Assembly (NCBI GenBank): GCA_050951805.1
Contig: JBMNJT010000003.1
Location: 1 to 64,000 of the forward strand
DNA: 64,000 nucleotides
Direction of reading: 5' to 3'
Origin: Bacillota bacterium
Lineage (GTDB): Bacteria; Bacillota; DTU025
Part shown: piece by piece, positions 2,464 to 35,758 of the stretch
Layout of the letters: each line of letters starts with the position of its first letter
Numbering within the stretch: the first letter of the stretch is position 1
The notes under the pieces: generated by a model
Databases searched by the model: none
What the model was told of the DNA's origin: nothing
What the model saw: the letters and a program-made list of their open reading frames with translations, nothing else
Position numbers and translations under genes: made by a program

Positions 2464-2476
2464 AAGGGGGATCATA

Positions 2477-10509: not shown

Positions 10510-11754
10510 ATGAGGACCCAAGAGACCAGAGTTTCCAGCCTGAATGCAGGCCTGTCATTGCTAACGCTTGCGTCGGTCTTCATTGGACTGCTTGTTTTCG
10601 GCGATGCGTGGGCATCGCACGATCTGGGGCGCTTCAGCTTCTCATCACTGCAATCAACAGTCCAAGCCGAACCGAGTGGCGTGGCTGTGGAGATAGGGGA
10701 TGTGACTACTGATGTTCGTTCGTTAATCACAGTTGAAGTGTGTGGGATGGCTGTAGCGCCCGACGGGATCGTGTGGGGCTGGGGAGACAGTTATTGGGGT
10801 CAACTACTCTTGAAGTGGGGAAATTGGTGTAGGCGTCCGAGGCCCATTCCGGGCTTGCCCAAGGCCAAGGCTGTGTCGATAGGCATCTCGAAGAACCTGC
10901 TTCTTGGCTTGGACGAAAGCGTATGGACATGGGGCGACTATCCAGAAGGTAACTGGAACCGCAGCCAGCCAAGGCGAGTTGCCGGACTTCCTCCCATGTC
11001 TGCCATTGATGCCGGTGGAGGTCATTGCATGGCGCTGACTTCCGAAGGCGTTGTATGGACATGGGGGGGCAATCGTTGGGGGCAACTTGGAGATGGGAGC
11101 ACGGCTACACGCGAGGTTCCTCAGCCAGTAGCCGAGCTTTCTGGGGTAGTGGACATATCGGCTGGATGCTCCCATTCACTTGCTCTCTGCAACGACGGGT
11201 CGGTCTGGGCGTGGGGAGATTGTGTCGGCGCCGAGGCTGACGCTGAATCAAGCGGCTCTCCTATGCCTTCAAGGGTTGAGGGCCTACCGCGCGCTGTGCG
11301 AGTCGAGGCCGGAGCAGGTTTCTCGATGGCTCTCACGGCAGATGGCGAGGTGTGGATGTGGGGCGCTTCATCATCGTCTTTGGCGCGCGTGAGCGATGAG
11401 ATCACGATGGTCCCGAGGCGGGTTCAAGGTCTCCCGCCAGCAATAGGAATCAGCGCAGGCGCCGGACATTGTCTAGTGGTCACGGCTGATGGAACAGTAT
11501 GGGCATGGGGAGATAACTCCTTCGGGGTATTGGGCGATGGGACTGAGAAGAGCCGAGCTACGCCGAAACCAGTGCCTGGTATATCCGGCGCAGTGGCAGT
11601 GGCCGCAGGCCTGCACCTTTCGGCCTGTGTGACATCGGATGGCTCGGTATGGGAGTGGGGTCTGGCTGATCGCGGTTTGTTAGGAGACTATCGGGGCTGC
11701 CTGCTGCCCCGCAAAGTCAGAGTGCCGTTGTTGACATATACCAGGGATGGATGA
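10510..11754 (+). CDS. Exported RCC1/BLIP-II repeat beta-propeller protein
   Basis: About 7 repeats such as AIDAGGGHCMALTSEGVVWTWGGNRWGQLGDG; aggagg RBS before ATG 10510; N-terminal hydrophobic signal; the ORF is open upstream to 10066. Confidence 0.9.
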   Translation: MRTQETRVSSLNAGLSLLTLASVFIGLLVFGDAWASHDLGRFSFSSLQSTVQAEPSGVAVEIGDVTTDVRSLITVEVCGMAVAPDGIVWGWGDSYWGQLLLKWGNWCRRPRPIPGLPKAKAVSIGISKNLLLGLDESVWTWGDYPEGNWNRSQPRRVAGLPPMSAIDAGGGHCMALTSEGVVWTWGGNRWGQLGDGSTATREVPQPVAELSGVVDISAGCSHSLALCNDGSVWAWGDCVGAEADAESSGSPMPSRVEGLPRAVRVEAGAGFSMALTADGEVWMWGASSSSLARVSDEITMVPRRVQGLPPAIGISAGAGHCLVVTADGTVWAWGDNSFGVLGDGTEKSRATPKPVPGISGAVAVAAGLHLSACVTSDGSVWEWGLADRGLLGDYRGCLLPRKVRVPLLTYTRDG

Positions 11755-13820: not shown

Positions 13821-14555
13821 CTATGATCTCTGTTCTGCCTTCCTCATCGACTCCCCTTTCAGATGTATTCTATGTGAACTATGGACCAGACGGTCGAGGA
13901 CTGCGTCGGCCACAGATGGATCGATGATTGATGCGTGCCAGTCTTCAACAGGAAGTTGGCTGGCGATTATCGTGGATGACAGCTGGCTGCGATCGTCGAT
14001 GATCTCCAGGATGTCGCGGCTTTCCACAGGACTCAGCGGTGCCGTTCCCCAGTCGTCCAGGATAAGCAAACGTATCTTGGAGAGCCTGACCAGCATTTTG
14101 GGATACGATCCGTCTCCGCGGGCAATGGCCAGTTCAGGTAGGAGGCGCGGCACTCTGTAGCACCGCGCACTGAACCCGTGGCGACAGGCGGAGTGGGCCA
14201 GAGCGCAGGCTATGAATGTTTTGCCCACGCCCGTAGGCCCAGTGATTAGGACATTCTGCGAGCCTCTAATCCAATCGCAAGTGGCAAGGTGAACCACGAG
14301 GTTTCGATCCAGGCCGCGTGGCTGCCGATAATTAATATCTTCTACGCATGCCGGAAGACGCAGCTTGGCCGCCTTGAGCAGACGGGCCAGCCGCCTGTTT
14401 TGCCGGTATGTCCATTCCTGGTCAACCATCAGGCTGAAGCGCTCGTCGAAGGACAATTCATCTATGTTGGGTCTTTTCCTTTGCGACGAGTACGCCTCGC
14501 CCATCCCAGTCGGGCGCATGTCGTTTAGCCGTGTTATGGTGTGTTCAATCAACAC
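13821..14555 (-). CDS. istB: IS21 helper ATPase IstB
   Basis: aggagg RBS and GTG at 14555; GPTGVGKT Walker A, LLILDDWG Walker B, ADAVLDRLVH, GESMRK. Confidence 0.9.
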   Translation of the reverse strand: MLIEHTITRLNDMRPTGMGEAYSSQRKRPNIDELSFDERFSLMVDQEWTYRQNRRLARLLKAAKLRLPACVEDINYRQPRGLDRNLVVHLATCDWIRGSQNVLITGPTGVGKTFIACALAHSACRHGFSARCYRVPRLLPELAIARGDGSYPKMLVRLSKIRLLILDDWGTAPLSPVESRDILEIIDDRSQLSSTIIASQLPVEDWHASIIDPSVADAVLDRLVHSSHRIHLKGESMRKAEQRS

Positions 14556-15825
14556 TTTGTCAGTCCTCCTAGGTGAAGTAGCCTGGACCCCGGACGTTTC
14601 GATGGGCGGGCATCGACTCGGGCGATGGCTTGGCTCTGTTGTGACCCGGCCTCGGCCAAAGGCCCTATGATGGATTGCCACTCTATGGCCGCGATTGAAT
14701 ACCTCCACAGTCTTTGCAGTCAGGCGAACATCGAGTTCGCGGCCTATGAGGCTATGAGGGACGCTGTACAGGTTGTGGTCGACTGTAATGTGATGGTCTA
14801 TGTTCACAGTTGCCTTTCTCCATTCGGCGAACACGTAGCGTGTCTCGGGAAGAGGCCTGAGAGCCGGCCTATCTATCTGCTCGTACAGAGACCTGCGCGT
14901 TCCATCCATCTTCTGAAAGGGTTTGTTGTTCAGCACATCCAGCTTTTCGCGGATAGCACCGTTCAGCTGGTGTAGGCCAAAGAAGGTGATGTTGCGTATC
15001 GCGGCTAGTATCCACCCCTCTACGACCTGGACTCCCTTCTCAACCTTTGCCTTGTCTCTCGGCTTGCGGGGCCGCGCAGGAATGACCACCGCTCCGTAGT
15101 ATTCGGCCATCTCGCTGTACGTGGGGTTTATGTCCGGCTCGTAGCGACAAGTCCTCGATACTCCGGCCTTTAGATTATCAGGCACCCAGATCTCTGCCGA
15201 CCCCTCAAAAAACTCCAGAGCATTGCGGGTTAAGGCCACCCATGATTCCAAATCCTGCGCCATCGTAGCTTCTGCTATATGTGTAGTTGCTCGCTCCCAA
15301 CACTGCAACGTACACGTACGCGTGCTCGATTTCGCCCGAGACAGGATCCACTATTGGCACGGTCTCTCCAGCGAAGTCCACGAACATCTTCTCCCCAGCC
15401 CGATGTGTCTGCCGCATCATGACGTCAAGCTTGCGTACCCATTCGCGATAGTGGGCGCAGAATTGGCTGTACTGGATCCCATCGGGGTTTGCCTGCTTGT
15501 ATTCATACCACAGAAGCTGCAGAGTAACGGATTTCTTGCGTTTGAGCTCTCGGTGAACCTGTTCCCATTCCGGCATAGGCCTGCCCCTGGGCTTGCCCGT
15601 GTTGCCCGCATAGAGCAGTTGTTCCACATCGTCCCAAGTCATGTTATCTGGGATCGGCCAACCGAGCCCAGCGCCCTCGGCTCTCCTCAGCACATCGCCG
15701 ACCGTGCTGTGGGCAATCTGCAGGCTTTCGGCAATTTGGCGACGGCTCAACCCCATCTGGTGATAAAGCCTGAGAATCTCCCTAATCTTGCGCATCGACA
15801 ACCTCCTATTTGCCACGGCCTTCAA
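14556..15825 (-). pseudogene. istA: IS21 transposase IstA, frameshifted near 15270 and C-terminally deleted
   Basis: MRKIREILRL HTH, GEKMFVDFAG, VPDNLK, PRDKAKVE are split over two frames; runs into istB without the usual C-terminal region. Confidence 0.85.
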
Positions 15826-16482
15826 TCACCCTCCCAAGAACATCTTGTTTGCGGGAGTTCGGTGATTCTATGTAGCGATCCTGTGGCATAGTTGCCGGCG
15901 CACTTCAGCTCCGAATCTAAGCCGTTGCCCTGGACGGTTTGCCCCGGAATCGGTGGACGAATTGGACCGGAATATGCATCACCTGGAGCATGACCAGAGC
16001 CAGCGCTGTCGGCCCACTTTACATGTGCGGAGCTATGGAGCTAAGCAAGTCACAAAGAGCATCCTATCCTAGTCAAGTGGCTGAGACCTGAACAGTAGGT
16101 AAGACAGACTCAGGATCGCACAGAAACGTATCGAGACTTACTGAGATCCCAATAGTGACGAGCATCGGCAACTGGGACTTGCTTTGCCTATCAGCGATTC
16201 TAAACAAATCCTCCTAAGGCAGCCAGCAGGTCAACGGGACATCGGAAGCTCCCACGTTATCGGAATGATGTGGCTGGACCAGGTAAGGGTGAGACAGCGT
16301 CGGATATTGCGGGTATATATGTAAATCGGTCGGTACACACATGGTGTGTATGAGGGAGGAGTTCCTTGATTCGTAGCGAATTATGGAAAGACTAGACAAT
16401 ACAGCCGCGAATTGGGCAAGAAACTACCGTCTTCTACGTGTCAGAGCAACGAGCATGTGGCTGTAGGCGTGAGGTAGAGAAT

Positions 16483-18003
16483 ATGAGAAAGGCGTTTTTC
16501 GGCGACTTTGCGACTGGCCATTTCCAGCTTCCAAGAGTGTTGTTGCTCCGTCGGCGCATTACCGCTATCCTGCTTGCATGCATCTGCTCACTATGTTGCA
16601 TGACCGTTCGTGTTCATGCGACATCAACATGTCTATCTGAACAAGGTTGTGCTCTCGTATCAATAGACGCCGTTTCTCAGGATGTGAAGATCGTCATAGC
16701 CCAGCTTGCAGCCTCTGCAGGCGTGAATGTGGTCATTGACGACTCAATCGCAGCGAGAGTGACGGTGCATCTAGCTGATGTTCCGTTCGACTACGCCATC
16801 GAAACAATAGCCTGCGCCGCAGGGGCCGATATTGCTATCAACAGAGGGCTATACATCCTGACGAATTTGCGCGCCCACTACGCCCAGCCTCAGGTTGCGA
16901 CTGAACAGACGGTGTCGCAGATTGTGGATGTTTCTGGCTTGGATTTCTCCTTGGCTCTAAGGCTTGTGCATACAGTGGCGGAAGAGCTCGAGGTTGAGCC
17001 GTTTCCGGAGCTTGGCGCGGTGATGATGCGTGGACCATACAGTCAGGTAAACGCGGCCAAAGCGGCGATTGACGGATACCTGAGGTCTGCTTCATCGTAC
17101 CGCCAGATCGATCCGGAGAGCTTCCGGTTAATGAGGCTGGCGTATGCTGACGCCTCGGAAGTGTCGATGTCGCTTCAGGGACAGTTTCATTCGGTTCGCA
17201 TAGTGCCGGCAAGAGGGGAGAACGCCATCTTGCTGACCGGGTCGGCCAAGCAGGTAGAGCTGGCCGCGGCAGCTGCTGAAGAGCTTGACCGCGTCCCTGC
17301 GCTATTGTCGTTCGACGCGGAGATCCTGGAGGTTAACTCTGATGACATGGACTCGTTCGGGATTGACTGGCAAAACAATCAGGGCCAGCCCATGTTGACG
17401 CTCACGTTCCGTGAGATGGATTCTCCGATCATTCCGGGTTCTCCTCCGCCGGGCGATGTCTTCGCCGCTAGGCCTTGGATCAGGAGCTCGCTGCAGGTTG
17501 TGAGCCAGGTCAGGCTTCTTGAGAGCGAGGGAAAGGCCAAGGTGCTTGCCCGTCCCAGCATAACGACGCTGGAGAACAGAACAGCAAGAATCGTTACTGG
17601 CGACAGGTACACCATTGTCATCAATCAGACAAGCGGCGGGAGCGCGTGGCAGCAGCTTCAGTACATAGATTCAGGGGTTCAACTGGAGCTTACGGCCAGA
17701 CTTGATCCTGCCGGATGTATTGTTGTTGCCTTGAGCCCTCGAATAACTGCGGTCACCGGGTTTTCGCGGGAGGGTTATCCGGTGTTGAGCACGAGAGAAG
17801 CGCAGACCACTGTTAGGCTTCGCGATGGTGAGACGCTGGCCATCGGCGGCCTCATAAGGGACGAGTCGAGCGAAGTTCAGAGCGGGCTTCCCGGGCTATC
17901 GTCTCTCGGGCTAATAGGCCGTCTTTTCGGATCCCAGAGCAAACAGGCAAAACGCACCGAGGTGGTCATTCTGTTGACTCCAAGGGTAGTGAGCCCAGAA
18001 TAA
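16483..18003 (+). CDS. Outer-membrane secretin (GspD/PilQ superfamily)
   Basis: Signal-like segment; N0-like AGVNVVIDDSIAARVTVHLADVPFDYAI; N3-like LAYADASEV..ENAILLTG..ELD; C-domain EGKAKVLARPSITTLEN, TTVRLRDGETLAIGGLI, GLPGLSSLGLIGRLF, EVVILLTPRVV. Confidence 0.95.
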   Translation: MRKAFFGDFATGHFQLPRVLLLRRRITAILLACICSLCCMTVRVHATSTCLSEQGCALVSIDAVSQDVKIVIAQLAASAGVNVVIDDSIAARVTVHLADVPFDYAIETIACAAGADIAINRGLYILTNLRAHYAQPQVATEQTVSQIVDVSGLDFSLALRLVHTVAEELEVEPFPELGAVMMRGPYSQVNAAKAAIDGYLRSASSYRQIDPESFRLMRLAYADASEVSMSLQGQFHSVRIVPARGENAILLTGSAKQVELAAAAAEELDRVPALLSFDAEILEVNSDDMDSFGIDWQNNQGQPMLTLTFREMDSPIIPGSPPPGDVFAARPWIRSSLQVVSQVRLLESEGKAKVLARPSITTLENRTARIVTGDRYTIVINQTSGGSAWQQLQYIDSGVQLELTARLDPAGCIVVALSPRITAVTGFSREGYPVLSTREAQTTVRLRDGETLAIGGLIRDESSEVQSGLPGLSSLGLIGRLFGSQSKQAKRTEVVILLTPRVVSPE

Positions 18004-18014
18004 GGATATAGGGA

Positions 18015-21000
18015 GTGGTCGACATGGCGAGGAAGCGAGATATGAGGTTGCAGGTCCTCCTGGTCATAGCATTACTGCTCGTTCTGTCGGGTTTTGCAGC
18101 CCGTTGCGCGGCTGCTGAGCCTTTGCCGGGCGACCCTGATGCAACCTGGACTAGATACATCACTCGCGAGTACGGCATAGAAGCGCAAGAGCTCGGCGGC
18201 CTGCGCAGGGCAGGCATGACATGGCCAAGCATCGCCGCCTATCTTGAGACCTTGTATCCTCATGAAACCATTGTGATGGACACAGATGACTTTGTGGAGC
18301 TCGCCTCGGGCAGCGGCATTACCCCATTTGAGTCTATCGAAACCTACAAGCGGGCCTTGAGCCACCAGACGGATCCCTCATGGTTGGCCAACTTGTATGC
18401 TGAGACTGGCAGTTGGGGGAGGATTGAGAGCGCCTTTGACAATAGAAAGCAGGCATACAGCCTGATAGATCAAGACGCTTTCGTGAGCAGTTCTGCGGCT
18501 GTGCCCCCGCAATCAATGGGCGAGGCCCTGTCGCCGCTCTATGGCGTATCGGCGGATTCTTTTGATACAGCAATCAGGCTAGGCATGGATACCGAGGACA
18601 TAGTTGATACGATGTTCATGGTAGAACTTGTATCAGAGGATGACATGGAGAAGACAGCCAATTTCAATGAGGCCGTCTACGCTAGTCGGCAGTTGGCGCC
18701 TGAGCTTTTGCCGCTAAGGCAGCGTTGGCCGGTCCGCGAGTTTCCAAGAGAGCTTTTGCCTCTCGTGCCCCCATCTGGCGTACAGGGTGCGGCTGCGCGG
18801 CAGCTGCCGACCGCGAGGCCAATCTCATCGGGACATATTCCCAAGGGGATGTCGGCGGCTGGCGCTGGATCAAATTCATCCATCGTCGATCCGAGCATAC
18901 TCTATGGCACAGAGAGGGTATCGCCTTTCAAGGCCTACTTCGAGGGCTTTGCGGAGCGAGTGGATCCATCTTCAGGAGCCCTCGTTGTCCGCCAAACCGA
19001 CTTTGTTCTGCCGGGGCGCGCTGGCCTCGACTTCGCCTTGACTCGAGTCTACAATAGTGGGCTGGCGAGTTTTGACATCCCGCGCACTAAAATTAGAGGG
19101 ATTCGGGACAGGAGCGGATCGACTGACTGGGAAGTATGGGGAGAGAAGATCCCCAACGCGTTTTTGGAGAAGCGCTTTGGAATCGGAGTAGGATGGCGTC
19201 TGGCGTTTCCAACCATCGAGTTTACTGACGGGCAGAAGTATCTGCACATGGATGATGGCGGCGTCTACAAGATTGGGGGAGGAAACTACGACGACGTAGG
19301 CTACTATCTGGTGGATTACGGTGTTCAGGATATGGTGTTCAGCGAGGATAAGTCTTATACGAGTCCCCTGGATGGCGCCGTATCCATGTACAAGCTCAGG
19401 CGCAAAGATGGAGTGGAATGGCTGTTTGGCTCGGATGGACGGCTGCTTTGCGTCAGGGATCGGTTTGGCAACGAGATCAAGTTCCAGTGCCAGGCCCCAT
19501 CGGGTGGGCTTGCCAGGATAGTGAAGGCGGTCGATACGGTCGGTCGACAGATTCTCTTCACCTACCAGGCAGATCAGGTTGTTGTGACTGTCATCCCTGG
19601 GGACGCATCATCGGCATCGACGTGGACGTACAAGCTGGAGTCAGCGGGTGGAAACCATTCCGACAGAATGAAGCTTGCCGCGGTCATTCCTCCGGCTGGT
19701 CGAGCGGTGTCCTACGAATATTCCACTGACGGCACAACGTTTACGCCGCATGTCCCTGGTGCAGGCACAGGCAGCCCAGTAACCCTGGATTATCTCAATC
19801 TTGTAACCATACACCATCAAGGCGAGGCCAGGTTCAACAAATCACCAGGGCATACGGCGCAATCATGCTACGAGTACGAGGCCTCGCACAAGAGCATGAA
19901 TAGTGGCGACCCCTCGAAATCCGACCCGTCGCAGCTGGGGTATTATCGCGTCGTGCGACGCTTTGACCTCGTGCCAACCGTGGATTTGTCGGGTGGACAG
20001 CCCTCCTCTGTGATCAGGCGCGAAGGCGAAGCCGAATTCGTCTATGCCGACTGGAATCGATCCACGCTGAGATACGGATGCACTCGAATCGCGCAAATGG
20101 CTGCGGGGGAGGCAGGCATCGCGCCTGCCAGAGAGTCTTGGCAATTCGACAAGAAACATAGGCTGATTACGCACGAGACTACGGGAGCCGACAGCGGAGA
20201 GAACCGCGGTCTTGAAGAGAAGATCTCAATCTCCTACAGTTATCTTGGCGACGATGACAAGCTGATAAGCAAGGAAGAGAAGGCCATCAGCGTCGGATCC
20301 GCCGAGCGTAGTGAGAATACCCAGTATATCTGGGACGGAGTGGGAAACCTCTTGGTCACTATAGACCCTGCCAACAGGAGGATAGAGAGGTGGTACGACC
20401 AGCGGTATTCTTTGCTAACCATGCAGGCTGAAGAGACAGTTGCTCCGAATGGATCCAAAGCCGCCCGCGTGCAGGAATACAAGTTGACTCCGGACAAAAG
20501 GGCGGTTAAAGAAGAGTGGGCATACATGGCTCTGCCTTCCACAGGCGGAACAACGAACTATTCAGCGGAGATCATGCGATCGGATGTTCCACAGGGCAGC
20601 TTCTGGACATGGTCGCCCTCAGGGGCCATCACGAACGCTAGGATTGATATCAGATGGTACAACAAAGGGTTTTGGCTAGATGCGGCGGAGTACACCATAT
20701 ACTACCGCGAATCCGGCGCCAGCCGATGGACCAGATACGCATCCAAGCGCCATCAGCATTTCCGGCGCGGCGGGGGAACCGACACCTGGAACATAGCGTT
20801 ATCGTCAACGCCCAAGCGGTACGACATAAAAGTGCAAGTGCGGCTATCTCCCATATGGATTTCGTCCGCTTCAGCGGTGGGCCCAGGCCCTGCGTGGATG
20901 CCGAGAAATGCAGGGGAGATATCCAAGCAGAGGTTCGAATATCACTCTCTCTACCCGTGGCTTCCAACCAAATCCTCTGTTCTCGGCTTCGGATCCTCAG

Positions 21001-24000
21001 GCGAGGAGTCAGCTACTACGTACAAGTACGAGGATGGAAGGTTTCTTTTCCCTACTTCGATAGAAACCGTGGTGCGCAACGCTGACTCAGCTTCAGCCAC
21101 AATTCGCACGGAAGCCCAGTATGACGGATTCGGCAGGGTCGCGCGGTACAACAAATACACTGTGGGCGACCCATCGGCAAGCGCGTCGCACAGCTGCTTC
21201 ACGTACGACGAGATCGGTCGCCTGCTGACTGCCGAAAGGCCCGCCCAAAGCCAAACTGGCGGGTATGTGAGGCCAACATACAGGCGAGCCTACGATGATC
21301 AGAACTTCATCGTTACCATCAGCGATGAACTGAATCGCAAGACGAGGGAGACCTATGACGGCCTGGGCCGGTTTGTGCTGGCAGAGCAGGAGGAAGCCCC
21401 TGGCCTGTGGAGGCAGGTGGCTCATGTCCAATACGACTCTTTGGGAAGGCTTGCGCGGCAATACGATGCTTTCGGCGTGGCGCACGAGACCAAATATGAG
21501 TACGACGCGTTTGGGCGAATAATCAAGACGCATTATCCCATGGAACTAGGCATGAGCGACTATGACCGCACTTTCTCCGAGTCATGGAGCGTGGACGCCG
21601 GGGATCTTCCGGCTTCGCTGTATCTGCCCGCGTTTCCGGCTGGGACGGGATACACAGCGGGGTATGCAACCGCTGTGAGGTGGGAGAAGGAGAACGCGGC
21701 AAGAAAAGCGTCGGAGCTGGAGCATTCAACGTACCGAGGATACGACGTAGCGGGCAGGTTGATTTGGAGCGCGGCGCAGACTGGGCCGGGGTCGAGCGAT
21801 TGGAGCGCGGCGTGTTACAGATATGACGACCTCGACAGGCTGGAGGCCAGTTGGGTCTATATCCAGGGGAACACATGGGACAAGACGTCACACGAATACG
21901 GCCTACATTTCGATGCGCCCACAGCCATGGCCTTGCCGGGGAACGGAAACCCAGAGCCGAGACATGAATACAGGTACAACAGCCGGGGATTGAAGGTTGC
22001 GGAGGATCCGGGCAAACCGTATGCGATCTGGTTTGGTTACGATGAGCTCGGCCGCCTCAAGACTGCGGACTACCGCGATGCCGCGGCTCCGATGAGCTCC
22101 AAACTCTTCTACGACCACGACGGTCGCATAACCCGGGCTGAGCTAACGAAGAGCGGGGCGCTTCAGAACGAGACGACCGCCACGTACAACCTTCGCGGGT
22201 GGCTTGTGGACGAGACTTGGATCATAGACGGAGAGCCATATTCCATGAGCTATGCCTATGACGACGTCGGCAACCGCATAAGCATGACTTACCCCAATAG
22301 TGTGAGCTTCAATTTCGAGTATGACAACCGCAACAGGCTGGCCAGGATCCCAGGTTACTTCGGCCCCGTGAACCAGCCCAGGCAGGTGGGGTTTACATAC
22401 GATGCCAACGGCCATCTTGCAAGCTCTACTTCGATCAACGGGGTGAGCACCGCCTACGCGACCGATGCCCAGGGCAGGCTGAAGTCGATAACCGCAACAA
22501 GGCAACAGCCGTTTGAAAACATACTGCAACTTGGCTACTCGTACACGTCCCAAGGGAATGTATCCCGCATATCTGGGATCAATGGGGGCTTTCCGTTTGA
22601 GCTGAACTACGGGTACGACCGGATCAACAGGCTCACGTTTGCCCAGGTTCCCAGGCCTGGAGGAATGGCCAACGTAACCTACCAGTATGACGGGGCAGGC
22701 AATCGAACGGTTGAGAGCTGGTCGGACACTGGCACAGTGCAGTACCAGTACTTGCCTGGAAACTACCTGAGGACCCGGGGGACGACAGCCTACTCCTGGG
22801 GGCCCTACGGGCAGTTGACATCAAAGACGCAAGGCCAGACAAGAACGGATTATGCGTACAGCGCTCAGCGCCTGATGAACGAGGTGAAGGTGGACGGCGC
22901 GGCTCTGGCGAAATACGAGTACGACGCCATGGGCCGCAGGATAAAGACGATCCAGGGCGAAACGACCACCATAACCTTGCACTCTGGAAACGACATAGTG
23001 TATGAGGTTCGCACAATGCCGCAGGCCGCGGGTTCGAACGCTGGGCTAAACGCAATCCCGGGCGACCCGATAATAGTCGATCCGATTGGCCCGATAATTG
23101 AGGATCCGCCGACTCCACCGCCTGATGACCCAGAGGATCCTGACCCAGATGATCCCGATCCAGACGATCCCGATCCAGATGATCCCGGCACGGGCGATCC
23201 GCCCACTTCCCCGGTGACGGAGTATGACAGACTCGTCACATGCTACCTTGTCCTGAACGGGAAACACTTGGCTAAGGTAGTACAGCAAGACTCGGATCCT
23301 GCTGAAGTCTACTTTTGCCACACCGACATGCTAGGATCCATAAGGGCGATCACCGACTCTTCGGGCGAGGTCGCAGCGAGGTTCGAGTATGAGCCGTTCG
23401 GGTTGGTTATCGAAGAGTCAGGCATTGCAGCCTCCGGAGCGGAAAGATACACCGGCAAGCCCTATGATCAAGGTATTGGCTTTTACTTCTTCGGGGCGAG
23501 GTATTATGACCCCGAGGTGGGGAGATTCACAAGCCGGGATTTAGCCAAGGATGGGCTAAACTGGTATGCATACTGCCGTCAGAATCCGTTGGTATACGTG
23601 GACCCGGATGGATGGAAGATCATATATGCTGACGGTAGTACTGAACGGGAAAAAGATGCGTTTGGCGAGGCCATCGAGTACCTCAAAGAAGACTCCGGAA
23701 CAGCACAAATTCTAGTGAATACGCTCGAGAAGTCGGAAGAGGTCATCGTCATACGGTTTTTGAAGTATCCACTTCTCGACCCGTCGAGGAAGAGAAAGCA
23801 TGCCTATATCCCGGGTAAGCGAACCATTGAATGGTGTCCTAATATGGGGATACGACTTAAAGATGGAAGAATCCAGAGTCCAGCCTTGGCATTGGCGCAC
23901 GAGATGGGACATGCTGAACAGTGGCTGGGCAATGGCCCAAAGACTGAGGAGGCCAATCTAGAAAAATGGGAGACGCCAATTGCCAAGCAACTCGGAGAGC

Positions 24001-24125
24001 CGGTTCGACCATACTACAGCTACGGACATTCCTCGGATCCATTGCCGAGGACTATGGGCCCTACATCACGTGAAGAAGCTGTACGCACATGGGCTCCATC
24101 GGGCACATACGGGCTTCTTTACTGA
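18015..24125 (+). CDS. Full-length Rhs/YD-repeat toxin with Sec-type signal peptide and C-terminal HExxH zinc metallopeptidase (M91-like)
   Basis: MARKRDMRLQVLLVIALLLVLSGFAARCAAA signal; VDPSSGALVVRQTDFVLPGRAGLDFALTRVYNS; many YD repeats; DPDG at 23601-23612; SPALALAHEMGH..EE..ETPIAKQLGEPVR..Y. Confidence 0.95.
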   Translation: MVDMARKRDMRLQVLLVIALLLVLSGFAARCAAAEPLPGDPDATWTRYITREYGIEAQELGGLRRAGMTWPSIAAYLETLYPHETIVMDTDDFVELASGSGITPFESIETYKRALSHQTDPSWLANLYAETGSWGRIESAFDNRKQAYSLIDQDAFVSSSAAVPPQSMGEALSPLYGVSADSFDTAIRLGMDTEDIVDTMFMVELVSEDDMEKTANFNEAVYASRQLAPELLPLRQRWPVREFPRELLPLVPPSGVQGAAARQLPTARPISSGHIPKGMSAAGAGSNSSIVDPSILYGTERVSPFKAYFEGFAERVDPSSGALVVRQTDFVLPGRAGLDFALTRVYNSGLASFDIPRTKIRGIRDRSGSTDWEVWGEKIPNAFLEKRFGIGVGWRLAFPTIEFTDGQKYLHMDDGGVYKIGGGNYDDVGYYLVDYGVQDMVFSEDKSYTSPLDGAVSMYKLRRKDGVEWLFGSDGRLLCVRDRFGNEIKFQCQAPSGGLARIVKAVDTVGRQILFTYQADQVVVTVIPGDASSASTWTYKLESAGGNHSDRMKLAAVIPPAGRAVSYEYSTDGTTFTPHVPGAGTGSPVTLDYLNLVTIHHQGEARFNKSPGHTAQSCYEYEASHKSMNSGDPSKSDPSQLGYYRVVRRFDLVPTVDLSGGQPSSVIRREGEAEFVYADWNRSTLRYGCTRIAQMAAGEAGIAPARESWQFDKKHRLITHETTGADSGENRGLEEKISISYSYLGDDDKLISKEEKAISVGSAERSENTQYIWDGVGNLLVTIDPANRRIERWYDQRYSLLTMQAEETVAPNGSKAARVQEYKLTPDKRAVKEEWAYMALPSTGGTTNYSAEIMRSDVPQGSFWTWSPSGAITNARIDIRWYNKGFWLDAAEYTIYYRESGASRWTRYASKRHQHFRRGGGTDTWNIALSSTPKRYDIKVQVRLSPIWISSASAVGPGPAWMPRNAGEISKQRFEYHSLYPWLPTKSSVLGFGSSGEESATTYKYEDGRFLFPTSIETVVRNADSASATIRTEAQYDGFGRVARYNKYTVGDPSASASHSCFTYDEIGRLLTAERPAQSQTGGYVRPTYRRAYDDQNFIVTISDELNRKTRETYDGLGRFVLAEQEEAPGLWRQVAHVQYDSLGRLARQYDAFGVAHETKYEYDAFGRIIKTHYPMELGMSDYDRTFSESWSVDAGDLPASLYLPAFPAGTGYTAGYATAVRWEKENAARKASELEHSTYRGYDVAGRLIWSAAQTGPGSSDWSAACYRYDDLDRLEASWVYIQGNTWDKTSHEYGLHFDAPTAMALPGNGNPEPRHEYRYNSRGLKVAEDPGKPYAIWFGYDELGRLKTADYRDAAAPMSSKLFYDHDGRITRAELTKSGALQNETTATYNLRGWLVDETWIIDGEPYSMSYAYDDVGNRISMTYPNSVSFNFEYDNRNRLARIPGYFGPVNQPRQVGFTYDANGHLASSTSINGVSTAYATDAQGRLKSITATRQQPFENILQLGYSYTSQGNVSRISGINGGFPFELNYGYDRINRLTFAQVPRPGGMANVTYQYDGAGNRTVESWSDTGTVQYQYLPGNYLRTRGTTAYSWGPYGQLTSKTQGQTRTDYAYSAQRLMNEVKVDGAALAKYEYDAMGRRIKTIQGETTTITLHSGNDIVYEVRTMPQAAGSNAGLNAIPGDPIIVDPIGPIIEDPPTPPPDDPEDPDPDDPDPDDPDPDDPGTGDPPTSPVTEYDRLVTCYLVLNGKHLAKVVQQDSDPAEVYFCHTDMLGSIRAITDSSGEVAARFEYEPFGLVIEESGIAASGAERYTGKPYDQGIGFYFFGARYYDPEVGRFTSRDLAKDGLNWYAYCRQNPLVYVDPDGWKIIYADGSTEREKDAFGEAIEYLKEDSGTAQILVNTLEKSEEVIVIRFLKYPLLDPSRKRKHAYIPGKRTIEWCPNMGIRLKDGRIQSPALALAHEMGHAEQWLGNGPKTEEANLEKWETPIAKQLGEPVRPYYSYGHSSDPLPRTMGPTSREEAVRTWAPSGTYGLLY
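22106..23407 (+). repeat. Rhs core repeat, near-identical copies at about 28270-29309 and 35770-37057; shorter copies at 30365 and 32357
   Basis: Direct nucleotide identity over more than 1 kb, for example aacatactgcaacttggctactcgtacacgtcccaagggaatg in all three long copies. Confidence 0.95.
23100..23208 (+). repeat. Coding Pro/Asp tandem repeat (15-bp PDPDD units) in Rhs
   Basis: EDPPTPPPDDPEDPDPDDPDPDDPDPDDPGTGDPP; one unit shorter at about 36760-36855 and absent at about 29100. Confidence 0.9.
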
Positions 24126-24141
24126 GGAGGTAGTCGCTCAG

Positions 24142-24795
24142 ATGACGAGAAAGAGGGCACTTGCTGCGGTTATGCTCTTGTTGTTGCTTGTTGTTGTCGC
24201 ATGGATCAGCTGGGGCTCAGTCTATAGGGGCAGTGATGAAACGCCCTTCCCCGCCGGTCTGGCCGAACGCGCTCAACGGGGGGACCTAGCGCTTACGATC
24301 TACTATGTGCCCGTGTCCACGCACATAGAGGTTGTTCCTCTGTGGTCTCCGGAACATCTGAGAAATCGTGGGTACGACTGCAGAGTAGAGGTTCTCCCAG
24401 AGCTGCTTAGGCGTTACATAGGCGCGCTACAACAGATTGACGAGTTAAGGTTGAGGCCAACTAGGCGTGTCGATGAATATGCCATGGATTTGAGAGTATT
24501 GGGCGAATTCTCGAGTGGGGGAAAGGTGATTCTTTCCTTCGGACTAAACTCGCCTACTGGCTGGCCAGTGATGTTTGTCAACGATTCGACGGTCAGGGCC
24601 AAGAGGGAGTTTTACGATCTAGTTAGGCCATTCTTGCCTCGTTGTGAAATTGCTGAGTATGATGAGTATCTCGAGTACTTCGGATATTGGGGACGGGTCA
24701 GAGCCCTTGGTGAAGGGATCAAAGATCTGATAGGCGGATGCGTGCCGTATTGGTCGCCGGACGAACAGCTGAACCAAAGGAGGCAAGTGCAATGA
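24142..24795 (+). CDS. Membrane-anchored immunity candidate 1 for the metallopeptidase tip
   Basis: gaggagg RBS, ATG 24142; MTRKRALAAVMLLLLLVVVAW anchor; directly after the toxin. Confidence 0.8.
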   Translation: MTRKRALAAVMLLLLLVVVAWISWGSVYRGSDETPFPAGLAERAQRGDLALTIYYVPVSTHIEVVPLWSPEHLRNRGYDCRVEVLPELLRRYIGALQQIDELRLRPTRRVDEYAMDLRVLGEFSSGGKVILSFGLNSPTGWPVMFVNDSTVRAKREFYDLVRPFLPRCEIAEYDEYLEYFGYWGRVRALGEGIKDLIGGCVPYWSPDEQLNQRRQVQ

Positions 24796-25343
24796 GGAGT
24801 AAGATGGCGACGATGTCGATGGCTTGTTTCCTTGCTGTTTTGCTTGTTGCCGCAGCGGGCGATGTGGCATTGGCTCCGGCCTGCTTCGCGGCGTCAGATG
24901 ATCGCCTGCCTTCGTCCAACTTAGCATCTGAGTACTGGATTGAACTCACCATCTTCTACATTCCATTGACGAAGTCGACTGACAGCCCATGTAGAACCCG
25001 AGCGGACGTGATGCGGAATTCCATATACAGGATCGAGTGTATACGAGGGAGTTGGAAATACAAGGAACTGCTCGAAATGATAGATGAGCTTGAGCCGAAG
25101 ATAGTCGACGACTTCGATGCGGACAGCCTTGACCTAAGGATATGGGGACAGTTTACTCTCAATTACTACGACTTGATAATGGAATTTGGCCTGCTTGGGG
25201 TGGCCGATGGTCGAAGGGTCATGGTCATAGACAACTTCATAGTGGAAGAAGCGCCTGAGTTCTATGAACTAGTGTCGTTTTTCGTTCCAGTCACAGAAAT
25301 AGAAGATTTCGACCTGGCAATGCAAAAGCTTGGGTATAGATAG
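24792..25343 (+). CDS. Exported immunity candidate 2, paralog of 24142-24795
   Basis: ATGA overlap; signal peptide; LTIFYIP..IDEL..DLRIWGQF..EFYELV aligns with LTIYYVP..IDEL..DLRVLGEF..EFYDLV. Confidence 0.8.
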   Translation: MRSKMATMSMACFLAVLLVAAAGDVALAPACFAASDDRLPSSNLASEYWIELTIFYIPLTKSTDSPCRTRADVMRNSIYRIECIRGSWKYKELLEMIDELEPKIVDDFDADSLDLRIWGQFTLNYYDLIMEFGLLGVADGRRVMVIDNFIVEEAPEFYELVSFFVPVTEIEDFDLAMQKLGYR

Positions 25344-25428: not shown

Positions 25429-27207
25429 ATGGGGGACCCCCAAGTGAGATCTTTGCGGAGGTATGTTGAGGTGAGGAATTGGTGGTCACTTGTATTGAAG
25501 GAGTGGCGCGGTTTCTGGCCCCGAATTCTGTTGGCCTCGGCGGCCACCTTAGGGTTTGACGCCTGGCTGGCGATCAGGGTGGCGGTATGGGAAATGGAAC
25601 GAGGTGAGGGGCTTGCTTTTGTGTTGTCATTCATTCCTTTTGCGGGAATATGCATAGCCTCTCTGATAGTCGGATATTTCACAATGCGCAGTGACTGGCG
25701 CGACCGTGCCGAGTTGCATCTCCCCTCATCCCCAATGAGCTGTGCCGGGGTGATCTGGGCCAAGCTGCTTGCAGCCGCTCTCGGTCTGGCGCTCATCGCT
25801 GTCGTGGCAACCACGGGAACATGGATTGTAGCGAGAAGATCCTCAATGTTCTACTCCGCCATCATATCAATGAAGAAGAACATTCTTTGGCTCAAGCCAT
25901 GGGAGAAGGCCATCGATATCACATGGGTAGTGATCTGTTTGATCCTCGGCCCTGCTCTCAGCGTTGCAGTTGGGATCTTCTCCTTCACAATAGGAACCAT
26001 TGTGCCGCGGATCTCAGGGCTGATCGCTGCAGTCGTTTGTGTACTCACATTCTACTTGGCCTTTGCATTTGCGCCGCATGCTATGTACATAGCATCGTTC
26101 ATACCCACTCCAGGTTTGATCGTGTACAAAGAGATGGATTACTTGGAGGCTTATCGTAAGGTTATTCCCCTCAGACCGTTCTGGCCCGCTTTGGCGGCCA
26201 TAGTCTTGCTCATCTTTGTCGCAGGAAAGATCCTCGAGTCGCAGAAGTCGGCGCCTGGCCGGCGGGAATCTGTTATGACGGGAGAGCTGTCGAAGACGAT
26301 CTCTCGTCAAGGAATAGTCATATTCGCTCTCGTCTTGCTTGCCGTAATAGCAAGTTTCACCCATCCATGGCTGTCGGGAAGCCAACTGCTGGTTTATAAA
26401 TCCCCGCCGGGGTCCGTCTCAATGATCGGTTTTACAAAGGACGCCTCCGCAAGCATTCCATTTGAGAAGACCTTCAGCACCGCCGGCGTCCAGCGCGTAG
26501 ATATACAGGCGCATCATGGCGAAATAACGGTCGTTGGGACAGATAGTAACAGCATCACCTTAACAGGCAAGTTGGTCGCGTACGGCGACACAGTGGAACA
26601 GGCCGAGAAGAAGTTGGGGTTTCTGCAGCTGAACACGCAGATCTGTGGCGACGTTCTCGAGATCGTCGCCAAGCCAGATGAATCAGTTGTGAGCAAGTGG
26701 ATGGGCGATGCCATTCTCCGTGTTGAGGTCCCGGCGGGGATAGCTGTAAGCTCCGCACTGTCATTTGGCGACACTACACTGGAAGGGATCGATGGCGCAA
26801 TCCGGGTCAGAACAAGCAGAGGCGGCAAAATCAGAGTGAATTCCACCAGGGGTGATCTGGATGTAGAAGCCACGGGCAAAATCGAAGTCAATGATGCAGA
26901 GGTCACGGGAAGGATGCGCCTGTTCTCATCTTGGGGCTCAATTGGCTTCCGGGGAACCCTCGGACAAAGCAACGACATCGAAACTGGAGAGAACGCGGTT
27001 ACAATCGAAGTTCCACAATCAACCTGTGTGCAGGCCGATGCAGCATCCTCCAGGGGGGACGTTTCCATCACGCTACCTATTGCCGGTGAAATCTCGGAGC
27101 GCTCCGGGGAAACGCCGTCGTCGTACGTAGGAGTGCTCGGAGAAGGCGCCCCGACAGGAGAACTCAAGGTGCGCGCCAACTACGCGATCAACATTTCGGG
27201 GCTATGA
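25429..27207 (+). CDS. Multi-TM (ABC-2 permease-like) domain fused to a DUF4097-like beta-strand repeat domain
   Basis: About 7 TM segments with LVLKEWR and LHLPSSP..VIWAKLLAA; C-half has GEITVVG, LRVEVP, SFGDTTLEGIDGAIRVRTSRGGKI, SSRGDVSI. Confidence 0.7.
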   Translation: MGDPQVRSLRRYVEVRNWWSLVLKEWRGFWPRILLASAATLGFDAWLAIRVAVWEMERGEGLAFVLSFIPFAGICIASLIVGYFTMRSDWRDRAELHLPSSPMSCAGVIWAKLLAAALGLALIAVVATTGTWIVARRSSMFYSAIISMKKNILWLKPWEKAIDITWVVICLILGPALSVAVGIFSFTIGTIVPRISGLIAAVVCVLTFYLAFAFAPHAMYIASFIPTPGLIVYKEMDYLEAYRKVIPLRPFWPALAAIVLLIFVAGKILESQKSAPGRRESVMTGELSKTISRQGIVIFALVLLAVIASFTHPWLSGSQLLVYKSPPGSVSMIGFTKDASASIPFEKTFSTAGVQRVDIQAHHGEITVVGTDSNSITLTGKLVAYGDTVEQAEKKLGFLQLNTQICGDVLEIVAKPDESVVSKWMGDAILRVEVPAGIAVSSALSFGDTTLEGIDGAIRVRTSRGGKIRVNSTRGDLDVEATGKIEVNDAEVTGRMRLFSSWGSIGFRGTLGQSNDIETGENAVTIEVPQSTCVQADAASSRGDVSITLPIAGEISERSGETPSSYVGVLGEGAPTGELKVRANYAINISGL

Positions 27208-28065: not shown

Positions 28066-28214
28066 TGGTGTCTCGCATGGATGAAGCGCCGGTCTGGATC
28101 AATCCTGCATGAGACAGATACGCTCATGTATGCAAGTAGTGAATCGTGAGCTAATGGAACCGGGGAACCCTTGCCCCCAACCGCCGCCAGCGGGGATGCA
28201 TCCTGTGGATAAGG

Positions 28215-30053
28215 GTGTCTCTTGCTGCGTCGCATTCGATGGTCTATGTCTATGACAATACTGGCAACGGCATAAGAATGACGTATCCCAATGACGTAAG
28301 CTTCAGTTTCGAGTATGACAACCGCAACAGGCTGGCTAGGATCCCAGGTTACTTCGGCTCCGTGGACCAGCCGTGGCAGATGGGGTTTACGTACGATGCC
28401 AACGGCCATCTTGCAAGCTCTACTTCGATCAACGGGGTGAGCACCGGCTACACGACCGATGCCCAGGGCAGGCTGAAGTCCATAACTGCAACAAGGCAAC
28501 AGCCGTTTGAAAACATACTGCAACTTGGCTACTCGTACACGTCCCAAGGGAATGTATCCCGCATATCTGGAATCAATGGGGGTTCTCCGTTTGAGCTGAA
28601 CTACGGGTACGACCGGATCAACAGGCTCACGTTTGCCCAGGTTCCCAGGCCCGGGGGAATGGCCAACGCAACCTACCAGTATGACGGGGCAGGCAATCGA
28701 ACGGTTGAGAGCTGGTCGGACACTGGCACAGTGCAATGCCAGTACTTGCCTGGAAACTACCTGAGGACCCGGGGGACGACAGCCTACTCCTGGGGGCCAT
28801 ACGGGCAGTTGACATCAAAGACGCAAGGCCAGACAAGAACGGATTATGCGTACAGCGCTCAGCGCCTGATGAGCGAGGTGAAGGTGGACGGCGCGGCTCT
28901 GGCGAAATACGAGTACGACGCCATGGGCCGCAGGATAAGGGCGATCGAGGGCGAGTCGACCGTCATAACCTTGCACTCTGGGAACGATATAGTGTACGAG
29001 GTTCGCACAATGTCGCAGGCTGCGGGTTCGAACGCTGGGCTAAACGCAATCCCGGGCGACCCGATAATAGTCGATCCGATTGGCCTGATAATTGAGGATC
29101 CGCCCACTTCCCCGGTGACGGAGTATGACAGACTCGTCACATGCTACCTTGTCCTGAACGGGAAACACTTGGCTAAGGTAGTGCAGCAAGACTTGGATTC
29201 CGCTGAAGCCTACTTTTGCCACACCGACATGCTGGGATCCATAAGGGCGATCACCGATTCTTCGGGCGAGGTCGCAGCGAGGTTCGAATATGAACCGTTC
29301 GGGTTGGTTGCCACATCAACAGGGCCGCTGGCCAGCGGAGCGCATAGATTCACTGGAAAGCCTGAGGATGGCGCTATAGGGTTCTACTACTTTGGGGCCA
29401 GGTACTATGACCCCGAGGTGGGGAGGTTTACGAGTAGGGATCCGATCTATCATGGGGCAAATTGGTACTCATATTGCAGTTCGAATCCTCTTGCGTCCTG
29501 TGACCGTAACGGATTACGAGACGAGCCGGGAACCGGTTCAGGGGTTATTCGGTCGGAGCAAGAACTATTCATAGTGGAAACACAGGAGGCCTATCCCGGA
29601 TTCGTATGGGACTCCCGGAACCAAGCTCCCTTTCACACGCAGTTTTTCGCTTGGCTGAACGATCATCCTAAGGAACGCGGAAGAGTATTTCCTGAGCCCA
29701 ATTGGTCACTCAGATTAGGGCTCAGTGCGTCTATCTGGCCGTACGGGGTTGAAGGCCATCTAGATCTAGGTGCACGAAGGGTGCAGGTTGGGAAGACGTT
29801 GTCGGCCCAATCAATTGCCGGATTCAGCTTTGACACAGAGTTCAGCAGGAGATTGCGAAATGTGGACGTTAGGGTTGAGACGACGGTGGGCCTGAACAAG
29901 CACTTTGGCATTGGCGCATTGTGGGATCTTCACGAGGATGGAAGAGCATCATGGGCCGGGTTAGCGCTTCATGTGGGCCCTGGCTATGGCCTCCCGATTA
30001 GCTTAACCGTTCCAATACCCAAGCATGCGCCTCCGTTTGGCGGGATTATCTAG
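28215..30053 (+). CDS. Orphan Rhs module (core plus alternative tip of unknown activity)
   Basis: Core near-identical to 22270-23407; ends NPLASCDRNG and continues into a distinct Gly-rich, beta-rich tip. Confidence 0.88.
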   Translation: MSLAASHSMVYVYDNTGNGIRMTYPNDVSFSFEYDNRNRLARIPGYFGSVDQPWQMGFTYDANGHLASSTSINGVSTGYTTDAQGRLKSITATRQQPFENILQLGYSYTSQGNVSRISGINGGSPFELNYGYDRINRLTFAQVPRPGGMANATYQYDGAGNRTVESWSDTGTVQCQYLPGNYLRTRGTTAYSWGPYGQLTSKTQGQTRTDYAYSAQRLMSEVKVDGAALAKYEYDAMGRRIRAIEGESTVITLHSGNDIVYEVRTMSQAAGSNAGLNAIPGDPIIVDPIGLIIEDPPTSPVTEYDRLVTCYLVLNGKHLAKVVQQDLDSAEAYFCHTDMLGSIRAITDSSGEVAARFEYEPFGLVATSTGPLASGAHRFTGKPEDGAIGFYYFGARYYDPEVGRFTSRDPIYHGANWYSYCSSNPLASCDRNGLRDEPGTGSGVIRSEQELFIVETQEAYPGFVWDSRNQAPFHTQFFAWLNDHPKERGRVFPEPNWSLRLGLSASIWPYGVEGHLDLGARRVQVGKTLSAQSIAGFSFDTEFSRRLRNVDVRVETTVGLNKHFGIGALWDLHEDGRASWAGLALHVGPGYGLPISLTVPIPKHAPPFGGII

Positions 30054-30072
30054 GGGTATAAGGAGCTGACAT

Positions 30073-30333
30073 ATGTTGGGCGTGCGGATTATCGTAGTCA
30101 TGTTGGCTGGTGCAGGCATTGTATTTGGCACGCTCCAGATTCTTGGGTCGGTCTACGGCTGGAGAGCGTTTTTTGATCCACCCACTGAATGGAATCGGTT
30201 TTGGCCTCAGTCATTCCTGAAGAGTGCACTGGGCTTAGAGATGCTACTGACATACAACTACATTACTGGCGCCTTGATGATTGTAGTGGCCACTGGTTTT
30301 TTGGTGGCTCTGGTACGCGGAAGCATCGAGTAG
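30073..30333 (+). CDS. Two-TM immunity candidate (Imm17-like layout)
   Basis: aaggag RBS; 86 aa, two TM helices flanking an aromatic loop WRAFFDPP..FW; directly after the tip. Confidence 0.7.
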   Translation: MLGVRIIVVMLAGAGIVFGTLQILGSVYGWRAFFDPPTEWNRFWPQSFLKSALGLEMLLTYNYITGALMIVVATGFLVALVRGSIE

Positions 30334-30364
30334 CAGCAAGAGCATCTGCCCAAGGGTAATCAGT

Positions 30365-31097: not shown

Positions 31098-31229
31098 CCT
31101 TGCAGCCGAACTCTGCCTTAGCCATAGATAGTGCAGCGCCGGGTGGAAGGTCGCATACTTGGCTCTGACGCCTCGAGAGTCGGCTTTTGCACAGGAGGGA
31201 ATGCTTTGCGGAGAGTATTGCAGGAGTTC

Positions 31230-31790: not shown

Positions 31791-31849
31791 GTCGACAGAA
31801 TCGCCGGCCCGGACGGGCTTTACGAGGTCGGCTGCTATCGGGCCGGAGA

Positions 31850-32320: not shown

Positions 32321-32356
32321 TGATTGCAGACGGAGCGGCTTGCTTGTGAATCCAGC

Positions 32357-33029: not shown

Positions 33030-33161
33030 CCTTGCAGCCGAACTCTGCCTTAGCCATAGATAGTGCAGCGCCGGGTGGAAGGTCGCATACTTGGCTCTGA
33101 CGCCTCGAGAGTCGGCTTTTGCACAGGAGGGAATGCTTTGCGGAGAGTATTGCAGGAGTTC

Positions 33162-34749: not shown

Positions 34750-34755
34750 GAGCTT

Positions 34756-35745: not shown

Positions 35746-35758
35746 GGTTGCAGGTCGA

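Follow-up and report, generated by a model that had tools for sequence, protein, structure and literature searches.

In two-partner secretion (TPS) and contact-dependent inhibition (CDI) systems, the gene for an outer-membrane channel stands before that of a giant toxin, and no motor is needed. By what route polymorphic toxins with a signal peptide get past the outer membrane of diderms that use neither a type V nor a type VI secretion system (T5SS, T6SS) for them is an open question. The Rhs effectors of the T6SS are cytoplasmic, lack a signal peptide and are loaded on VgrG, according to part of the account in PMC8765631, and the 2012 catalogue of polymorphic toxins labels the signal-peptide proteins as "T2SS" (type II secretion system) from the signal peptide alone, with the word "secretin" absent from the first 300,000 characters of its text (PMC3482391). 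A secretin route was suspected for the MafB toxins of Neisseria, for which PilQ was tested and was dispensable (PMC4287609, in part), and secretins have been co-opted repeatedly, including in type III secretion systems (T3SS) and filamentous phages (PMC6668835, in part). The locus described here lies in a stretch of 64,000 nucleotides, hereafter the window, which forms the first 64 kb of contig C3 (JBMNJT010000003.1) in the assembly of a Bacillota bacterium (GCA_050951805.1, genome G000; 2.75 Mb, 8 contigs, 97% complete). It consists of a secretin gene followed directly by the gene of a giant Rhs toxin that carries a putative Sec-type signal peptide of its own. The two genes probably constitute a dedicated two-gene module for toxin export or display in diderm Firmicutes. 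No published account of a secretin-Rhs pair was found in the literature, as judged from titles and the openings of abstracts.

Loci containing the secretin were collected from the class of the host, which comprises one order with 21 species genomes, from metagenome contigs found with the clade alignment and from a 401-genome sample of the phylum. Duplicates were removed (G001, 99.97% identical to the window; L041, the same as G011; L045, the same as G006; L042 and L044, which represent one locus), and the G020 locus, which runs off its contig, was uninformative. Secretins of the window type were found in 10 of the 21 class genomes, with 39-100% identity. Among the 15 non-redundant secretin loci with readable downstream DNA, all but 1 were found to contain an Rhs gene directly downstream and on the same strand, at spacings from an overlap up to 357 bp, the exception being G013. 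The 14 paired loci come from three families of the class, which has four, from two families elsewhere in the phylum (G076 and G113) and from the metagenome contigs L043, L046 and L042+L044, and the pairing persists where the secretin has only 33-36% identity to that of the window (L043 and G076). The adjacency from which the original prediction started is thus not unique to this genome, and it recurs with a second secretin clade. Upstream neighbours vary by locus (MMPL/LolA-like, MacAB-TolC-like, a Y-family polymerase, a sugar kinase, SpoIID, an ABC permease), and because they are unrelated between loci the conserved unit is the pair itself, with the IS21 insertion sequence (IS) of the window incidental. 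No pilus or T2SS genes were found beside the pair in the loci examined. Paralogous secretin-Rhs pairs coexist within G004 and within G009.

The two proteins also co-occur at the level of whole genomes. In counts that cover related, non-independent genomes, the N-terminal region of the Rhs protein was found in 8 of 21 class genomes and DUF6531, a marker of Rhs starts, in 7, and every one of these genomes belongs to the 10 secretin carriers; neither could be found in the 11 class genomes without the secretin. Secretin and Rhs N-domain identities were correlated across 8 loci (28 pairs; Spearman 0.50, Pearson 0.67), which was not used as evidence because the pairs are non-independent and linked genes co-diverge anyway. 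Comparative genomics thus gives good support to a functional coupling between this secretin clade and Rhs toxins with a signal peptide.

A search of 5.8 billion proteins with the window secretin returned 23 that scored between 311 and 1093 bits, followed by the next one at 127 bits; the sources of these 23 include a Limnochordaceae metagenome-assembled genome (MAG) and a Clostridia MAG. A maximum likelihood tree was constructed on the region comprising the N3 domain and the barrel, in which 16 Rhs-linked secretins form one branch (Shimodaira-Hasegawa-like approximate likelihood ratio test [SH-aLRT], 99) apart from two other secretin clades of the class. In an enlarged tree the Rhs-linked clade contains 17 rows, including G076 (SH-aLRT, 100). 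The two other clades hold secretins encoded beside PilB/GspE-type genes in G181 and G113, and the Rhs-linked secretins, whose status as a clade of their own was one of the checks proposed with the original prediction, are not nested among the pilus-linked secretins of the same genomes. Displacement of an ordinary PilQ or GspD by the neighbouring IS21 can be ruled out, given this separate clade and the relatives that have other upstream neighbours and no IS.

A second Rhs-linked secretin clade (support 100) can also be seen, with ~30-35% identity to the window secretin and an AMIN-like N-terminus, whose hosts belong to other families: the closed genomes G181 and G398 (two loci) and the MAGs G264 and G290. 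In G181, G264 and one of the G398 loci, the secretin gene is followed by a gene for a signal-peptide CarboxypepD_reg-like protein and then by one for a signal-peptide Rhs with DUF6531; at the other G398 locus the Rhs comes directly after the secretin, and the G290 locus is a degraded version of the cassette. The secretin-Rhs link is either ancient or has arisen twice, because the sister relation of the two Rhs-linked clades is not settled by the tree. The CarboxypepD_reg-like proteins of the variant cassettes (L102, G181:C1:2733000-2750000; L100, G264:C116; L104, G398:C1:1472000-1491500) are exported beta-sandwich proteins of 330-450 aa, and the associated Rhs proteins have an acidic low-complexity or TSP3-like stretch ahead of DUF6531. 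A sigma-54 activator gene lies just upstream of the G181 cassette.

The secretin of the window belongs to the PF00263 superfamily but is a type of its own. Pfam Secretin (PF00263) matches residues 360-518 with 138.5 bits against a cut-off of 27.5 (E = 2.1e-40), and Secretin_N matches with 37.1 bits against 28.2 (E = 3.8e-09). GspD is the best of the NCBIfam models (TIGR02517, equivalog; 150.4 bits, cut-off 351.35, with only residues 235-519 aligning), yet the protein falls below the cut-off of every curated secretin subtype, including PilQ (TIGR02515; 128 bits, cut-off 284.35), SctC (129 bits, cut-off 238) and MshL (118 bits, cut-off 250). The AlphaFold2 (AF2) model has the domain order signal peptide, N0, N1, N3 and C-terminal barrel, such that three alpha/beta N domains precede the barrel, and is without an S-domain. 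Foldseek returned a probability of 1.00 for this model against chains of GspD, InvG, PilQ, pIV and RcpA, with the best full-length fold matches being GspD and InvG (E down to 3e-19). GspD_N0 gave a weak match (E = 0.06), and residues 74-133 matched an N-terminal fragment of PilQ in a PDB sequence search. In the N-terminus, read by eye from the translation, a basic n-region precedes a hydrophobic stretch and a site resembling Ala-X-Ala, with cleavage likely after VHA at residue 46. ATG 16483 is the likely start, since the length of the product then equals that of database protein P0003 (506 aa).

The downstream protein is a member of the Rhs/YD-repeat polymorphic toxins, with Pfam matches to RHS_repeat (100.3 bits, cut-off 22, E = 6e-29), DUF6531, the RHS core and, weakly, DUF6443, and NCBIfam matches to the Rhs-associated core (TIGR03696; 68.6 bits against 32.5, residues 1792-1866) and YD_repeat_2x (49.1 bits, cut-off 15.8). 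Sequence matches in the PDB are to Rhs, teneurin and YenC2 chains. The core closes with a DPDG autoproteolysis-type motif, and the isolated C-terminus behind it gave a weak match to Peptidase_M91 around its HEMGH motif (E = 5.7e-4). The layout of the putative signal peptide recurs in 9 of 9 aligned orthologues when inspected by eye. The region that follows it, before a low-complexity linker that extends to about 18950, is conserved among the orthologues and was modelled by AF2 as all helices (residues 38-232; predicted local distance difference test [pLDDT], about 75-90). It has no Pfam family, even at E values up to 10, and the N-terminal model had no Foldseek match in the PDB at E <=0.001. 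A profile of this N-domain, searched against 1.84 billion representative proteins, gave 37 matches at E <=0.001 and 20 at E <=1e-10. The domain lies within the first 290 residues in all of the 19 best matches, and RHS_repeat and/or DUF6531 could be found in 6 of the 7 clear matches that were scanned. Weak matches in multiple stretches are TPR or low-complexity proteins, which gives the domain at most a faint TPR-like character. On these profile matches, the N-domain is rare and appears to be specific to Rhs proteins.

The coordinates of the pair and its neighbours are collected in Table 1. The original prediction had described a complete secretin ending at 18003 and an adjacent Rhs protein; the pair was confirmed, whereas the 2036 aa and 11-bp gap given for it, which correspond to a start at GTG 18015, are replaced by the likelier 2033 aa and a gap of 20 bp. 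ATG 18024 was judged the likelier start, with AGGGAG 8 nt ahead of it. A terminator scan of the + strand between 17000 and 18400 returned no sites, so none lies between the secretin and Rhs genes. A 3-kb stretch across the junction is present in many bioreactor, landfill and sludge metagenomes and in four metatranscriptome runs of two studies. One contig from a metatranscriptome library (5,568 nt, 1 mismatch) covers 16860-22427 of the window and thus the secretin-Rhs junction, and a second RNA-library contig covers 23874-25572, which takes in the end of the Rhs gene, the two immunity candidates and the first part of the following open reading frame (ORF). The RNA-library contigs leave stretches uncovered, such as 14001-15002 in the IS21, which was counted as no finding. 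These contigs fit transcription as an operon, and the secretin and Rhs genes are probably co-transcribed.

Table 1. Features of the secretin-Rhs locus and its surroundings in the 64-kb window
Feature	Position	Strand	Description
RCC1-repeat (beta-propeller) protein	10066-11754	+	562 aa; between the upstream orphan Rhs pieces and IS21
IS21 element 1	13821-15891	-	IstA frame broken: HTH (helix-turn-helix) piece 15205-15825; Mu-transposase C-terminal piece joined in frame to IstB, 13821-15308
Secretin gene	16483-18003	+	506 aa from ATG 16483; open frame from GTG 16438 (16438-18003)
Intergenic spacer	18004-18023	+	Shine-Dalgarno-like AGGGAG at 18010-18015
Rhs gene	18024-24125	+	2033 aa from ATG 18024; 2036 aa from GTG 18015
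Rhs signal peptide	18024-18116	+	31 aa; basic n-region, hydrophobic core, AAA then E; read by eye from the translation
Rhs N-terminal all-helical domain	18117-18779	+	~220 aa; candidate secretin-targeting or anchoring module
Rhs shell	18954-23612	+	DUF6531 plug region (18954-19061), YD/RHS repeats, Rhs-associated core (about 23388-23612)
C-terminal toxin domain	23622-24125	+	~165 aa; HEMGH zinc-metallopeptidase motif, behind DPDG
Immunity candidate A	24142-24795	+	217 aa from ATG 24142; N-terminal membrane anchor or signal sequence
Immunity candidate B	24792-25343	+	183 aa from ATG 24792; signal peptide
592-aa ORF	25429-27207	+	behind immunity candidate B and ahead of the orphan Rhs array
Orphan Rhs C-terminal modules	28215-30053, 30287-30799, 32324-32731, 35738-37489	+	array 28215-37489; Pfam RHS_repeat, RHS
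IS21 element 2	57438-59749	-	looks intact; IstA 507 aa, IstB 263 aa

The host is a diderm, because a BamA-type Omp85 is present in its genome (one gene on contig C2, the only Omp85 match), and all carrier genomes tested likewise have a BamA-type Omp85. No match to VipB/TssC, the T6SS sheath, or to PAAR_motif was found genome-wide in the 97%-complete assembly, in which VgrG and WXG100 were not searched genome-wide. A Pfam scan of the window covered 45 ORFs, nearly all of at least 150 aa with shorter ones left out, and found no PAAR, VgrG, LXG, TcdB-like, TpsB, pilin, T2SS or type IV pilus (T4P) family among them, in agreement with what had been read from the sequence alone. A single T4P cluster is found on C2, to which the T2SSE/T2SSF matches of the host are confined; it encodes PilB, PilT, PilC, PilD and a PilQ-type secretin in a 1477-codon frame. 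The survey proposed with the original prediction has therefore returned a diderm genome with no T6SS found and one T4P cluster on another contig. The window secretin is the only other full secretin of the host, and the window Rhs its only full-length Rhs. The pilus-cluster secretins of the class are encoded in open frames of 1,200-1,775 codons, far longer than the usual PilQ (G000 C2:1170897-1175327 and relatives). On contig C5 of G000 (2109-3486, - strand), residues 1-66 of a secretin (65% identity) run straight into residues 1449-1829 of an Rhs protein (92%), apparently what is left of a second secretin-Rhs pair after a large deletion or a recombination; similar fused remnants can be seen at G004:C37 and G004:C6.

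Two ORFs behind the Rhs gene had been proposed to encode immunity proteins, and both hold up as real ORFs, with ATG 24142 and ATG 24792 each preceded by a GGAGG-like site on inspection of start codons and ribosome-binding sites. The products are paralogues (31% identity), each with an N-terminal anchor or signal peptide, and neither matches a Pfam or NCBIfam family. Because both immunity candidates are exported or membrane-anchored, the Rhs toxin probably acts in the cell envelope.

The following course of events is proposed for the pair. The Rhs precursor would cross the inner membrane via Sec by its signal peptide and so reach the periplasm, where the multimeric secretin encoded upstream would give it a route through, or anchorage in, the outer membrane, with the helical N-domain being the element most likely to dock on the secretin. 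Once outside, the toxin at the C-terminus, a metallopeptidase-like domain with an HExxH motif, would be delivered to competitors by the Rhs shell, and the orphan C-terminal modules downstream may supply alternative toxins by recombination. A bolder version of this proposal is that the secretin works without a motor and by itself forms the translocon of the outer membrane, or a surface anchor, for a giant Rhs exported by Sec, which it would recognise via a private helical N-domain; this would be a new minimal secretin-based "two-partner" class, arisen once or twice in diderm Firmicutes, and is put forward tentatively, with more doubt than confidence.

Several points weigh against a dedicated export or display module. 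The secretins known so far act together with a machine in the inner membrane. That the Rhs passes through the secretin is inferred; prediction of a complex between the secretin N0-N3 region (residues 45-290) and the Rhs N-domain (32-250) scored 0.00 in two runs, which is no evidence either way, as a monomer is a poor stand-in for a 12-15-mer. According to part of PMC10550240, an active process is required for folded T2SS effectors to pass, and T2SS secretins accommodate cargo of 55 A (CbpD) and of 60 A or more (endopilus), whereas the RhsA cocoon measures 86 x 65 A (PMC8765631, in part). The shell, if folded, would therefore reach or exceed what is known to fit, and the shell region of the window Rhs is long (~1,500 aa). 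Display with only part of the Rhs in the channel, or export before the shell closes, are alternatives. Interrupted or truncated copies were found at G004:C6, G009 (two loci), G011, G006 and G113, which indicates frequent decay, assembly error or both, and there is one in-frame stop each in G014 and L044. These stops could be sequencing errors, early decay or read-through sites, the two Rhs genes being otherwise well conserved; in G014 (L031, G014:C29, 7672-7674) a TGA interrupts the N-domain behind its first helical module, and in L044 (1921-1923) the stop lies past the DUF6531 region. To these may be added the relatedness of the genomes behind the co-occurrence counts, and the RNA-library contigs, which leave a single transcript unproven and come from libraries that possibly contain DNA. 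Finally, the secretin and the three N-domain Rhs genes of G013 are unlinked (the latter being on other contigs with no secretin ahead), and the pilus genes of this genome could all be on one unassembled contig, because they are clustered in its relatives.

It was also considered that the secretin is a second, cargo-specialised port of a T2SS-like route, in which T4P machinery encoded in trans (PilB, PilC and pilins) would push the folded Rhs outwards like a pseudopilus piston. This is unlikely, although the host does have a complete-looking T4P set on C2 (PilB, PilT, PilC, PilD and the giant PilQ-type secretin), and the secretin has kept an N0-like domain, the part that touches inner-membrane partners in T2SS and T4P secretins, as judged from the AF2 model, the weak GspD_N0 match and the match to the PilQ fragment. 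The active process needed for folded T2SS cargo (PMC10550240, in part) points the same way. Set against these is the lack of any pilus or T2SS gene linked to the pair in the loci examined, and the closed genome G181, in which two other secretins are encoded ~9 kb from a PilB/GspE-type ATPase gene but the Rhs-linked secretin is >500 kb from any. Borrowing of pilus machinery encoded elsewhere, as the original prediction had suggested, is weakened by G013 (96% complete, 2% contamination, BamA present). The only secretin of this genome is of the Rhs-linked type, and with its three cognate Rhs it is kept where none of three type IV filament (T4F) markers was found: PilC/GspF (PF00482) and prepilin peptidase (PF01478) had no matches, and the best match to PilB/GspE (PF00437) was an unconvincing partial one of 28 bits. 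This argues, at the level of gene content, that a secretin of this type can handle Rhs proteins whose genes lie in trans, and may do so without a T4F machine. The G013 secretin gene is at the start of its contig and is followed by housekeeping genes; a 167-aa ORF behind it is spurious-looking and related to nothing.

Quite improbable is a role of the secretin in import, as a recognition or entry site on kin cells (a receptor or portal in a "greenbeard"-type exchange) or as a general envelope factor. The exported or anchored immunity candidates, by which the toxin probably need reach only the periplasm of its target, and the paralogous pairs of G004 and G009, which would be expected if each Rhs matches its own secretin, fit such a role; a gene that sensitises its bearer, however, should tend to disappear and not to stay in the toxin operon, and the order of channel and then giant Sec-dependent toxin is that of export pairs like TpsB-TpsA. 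The evidence of this analysis does not bear directly on import. There is very little to be said for the absence of any functional link, with the pair merely sharing a mobile or recombination-prone island and the secretin serving other cargo, even though IS elements and orphan Rhs modules abound in the region and many copies are degraded. Adjacency is kept down to 33-36% secretin identity in varied contexts and with the same-strand spacing given above, a second secretin clade has the same link, the two proteins co-occur in G013 even when unlinked, and no Rhs starts (DUF6531) were found in class genomes without the secretin. Export or display of the Rhs through its own secretin is thus the reading adopted here.

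The surroundings of the pair contain further Rhs material and mobile elements. The orphan Rhs C-terminal modules share 75-93% identity with the main Rhs over the core region (BLASTP), and a 300-nt core-coding segment has six copies between positions 1 and 40000 of the window, five of which are outside the main Rhs gene. Such modules flank the main gene on both sides (456-710, 6300-8123 and 28155-37489), and the core-segment copies at 30365-30724, 32297-32656 and 36893-37252 have 86-99% mutual identity, which suggests recent duplication. The 592-aa ORF between the immunity candidates and this array matches no family of Pfam or NCBIfam; several membrane helices are predicted for its first half, and its C-terminal half is beta-rich and repeat-like. 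A paralogue, split over two frames, is found at C7:1349-3100. The degraded IS21 element 1 lies 600 bp upstream of the secretin, and the contig of the near-identical genome G001 stops at this first IS21.

A conserved operon of one secretin and one Rhs offers a concrete, testable answer, for one lineage, to the question of how such toxins cross the outer membrane. If no motor is involved, this would be the simplest secretin-based exporter known and a natural system for studying how the secretin gate opens for very large cargo, as well as a further case of secretin co-option beside the T3SS and filamentous phages (PMC6668835, in part). If the export reading is true, the pair would also show how diderm Firmicutes fight competitors in a host genome in which no T6SS was found. 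For the related variant, closed genomes exist of two carriers (G181 and G398), and experiments may be feasible if these represent cultures.

Compared with known systems, the pair resembles the T2SS in a cargo with a putative signal peptide, which would imply a periplasmic intermediate, and in a secretin of N0-N1-N3-barrel architecture whose best full-length folds include GspD. It differs in that genes for GspE, GspF, GspC or pseudopilins are neither linked to the window pair, in the 64-kb scan, nor beside the orthologous pairs, in that one cargo gene lies in the operon whereas T2SS substrates are dispersed, and in that one carrier genome (G013) is without detectable T4F machinery. The filamentous phage pIV and the InvG/SctC secretins of the T3SS are precedents for a secretin recruited from pilus systems to other cargo, but work with a dedicated inner-membrane assembly machine, none of which is linked here. 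The T6SS Rhs effectors (RhsA, Tse5 and Tse15) share the shell, DUF6531 plug region, core and autoproteolysis-type motif, whereas the window Rhs begins with a putative signal peptide and belongs to a host genome in which no PAAR and no TssC was found. With regard to the BC components of Tc toxins, Pfam lists only RHS_repeat, RHS, DUF6531, weak DUF6443 and weak Peptidase_M91 on the Rhs, with no N-terminal region of the TcdB/TcaC type (SpvB, mid-N), and its YenC2 match in the PDB is limited to the core region. Rhs proteins of the WapA type in monoderms have a signal peptide, as is putatively the case for the window Rhs, and likewise combine an Rhs shell and a C-terminal toxin with the lack of PAAR or VgrG, and DUF6531 also matches in the Bacillus subtilis control genome; the carriers described here differ in having an outer membrane and, in the Rhs, a different, unnamed helical N-domain. 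Because of this outer membrane, a further export step beyond Sec would be needed, for which the secretin is the candidate. As in the type Vb systems (TpsB-TpsA and CdiB-CdiA), the channel gene comes first and is followed by that of a very large polymorphic toxin. Sec dependence and targeting by the N-terminal region, both features of type Vb toxins, are probable for the Rhs too, and the two kinds of system have in common a toxin domain that varies at the C-terminus, an immunity gene and orphan toxin modules. The channel here is, however, a multimeric secretin (PF00263) and not an Omp85/POTRA protein, and the cargo is a YD/Rhs shell, with no TPS domain in the Pfam scan, and not an FHA beta-helix. 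Secretin-based export and Rhs toxins are each of known kinds; in their pairing there is a substantial chance of a new minimal secretion system.

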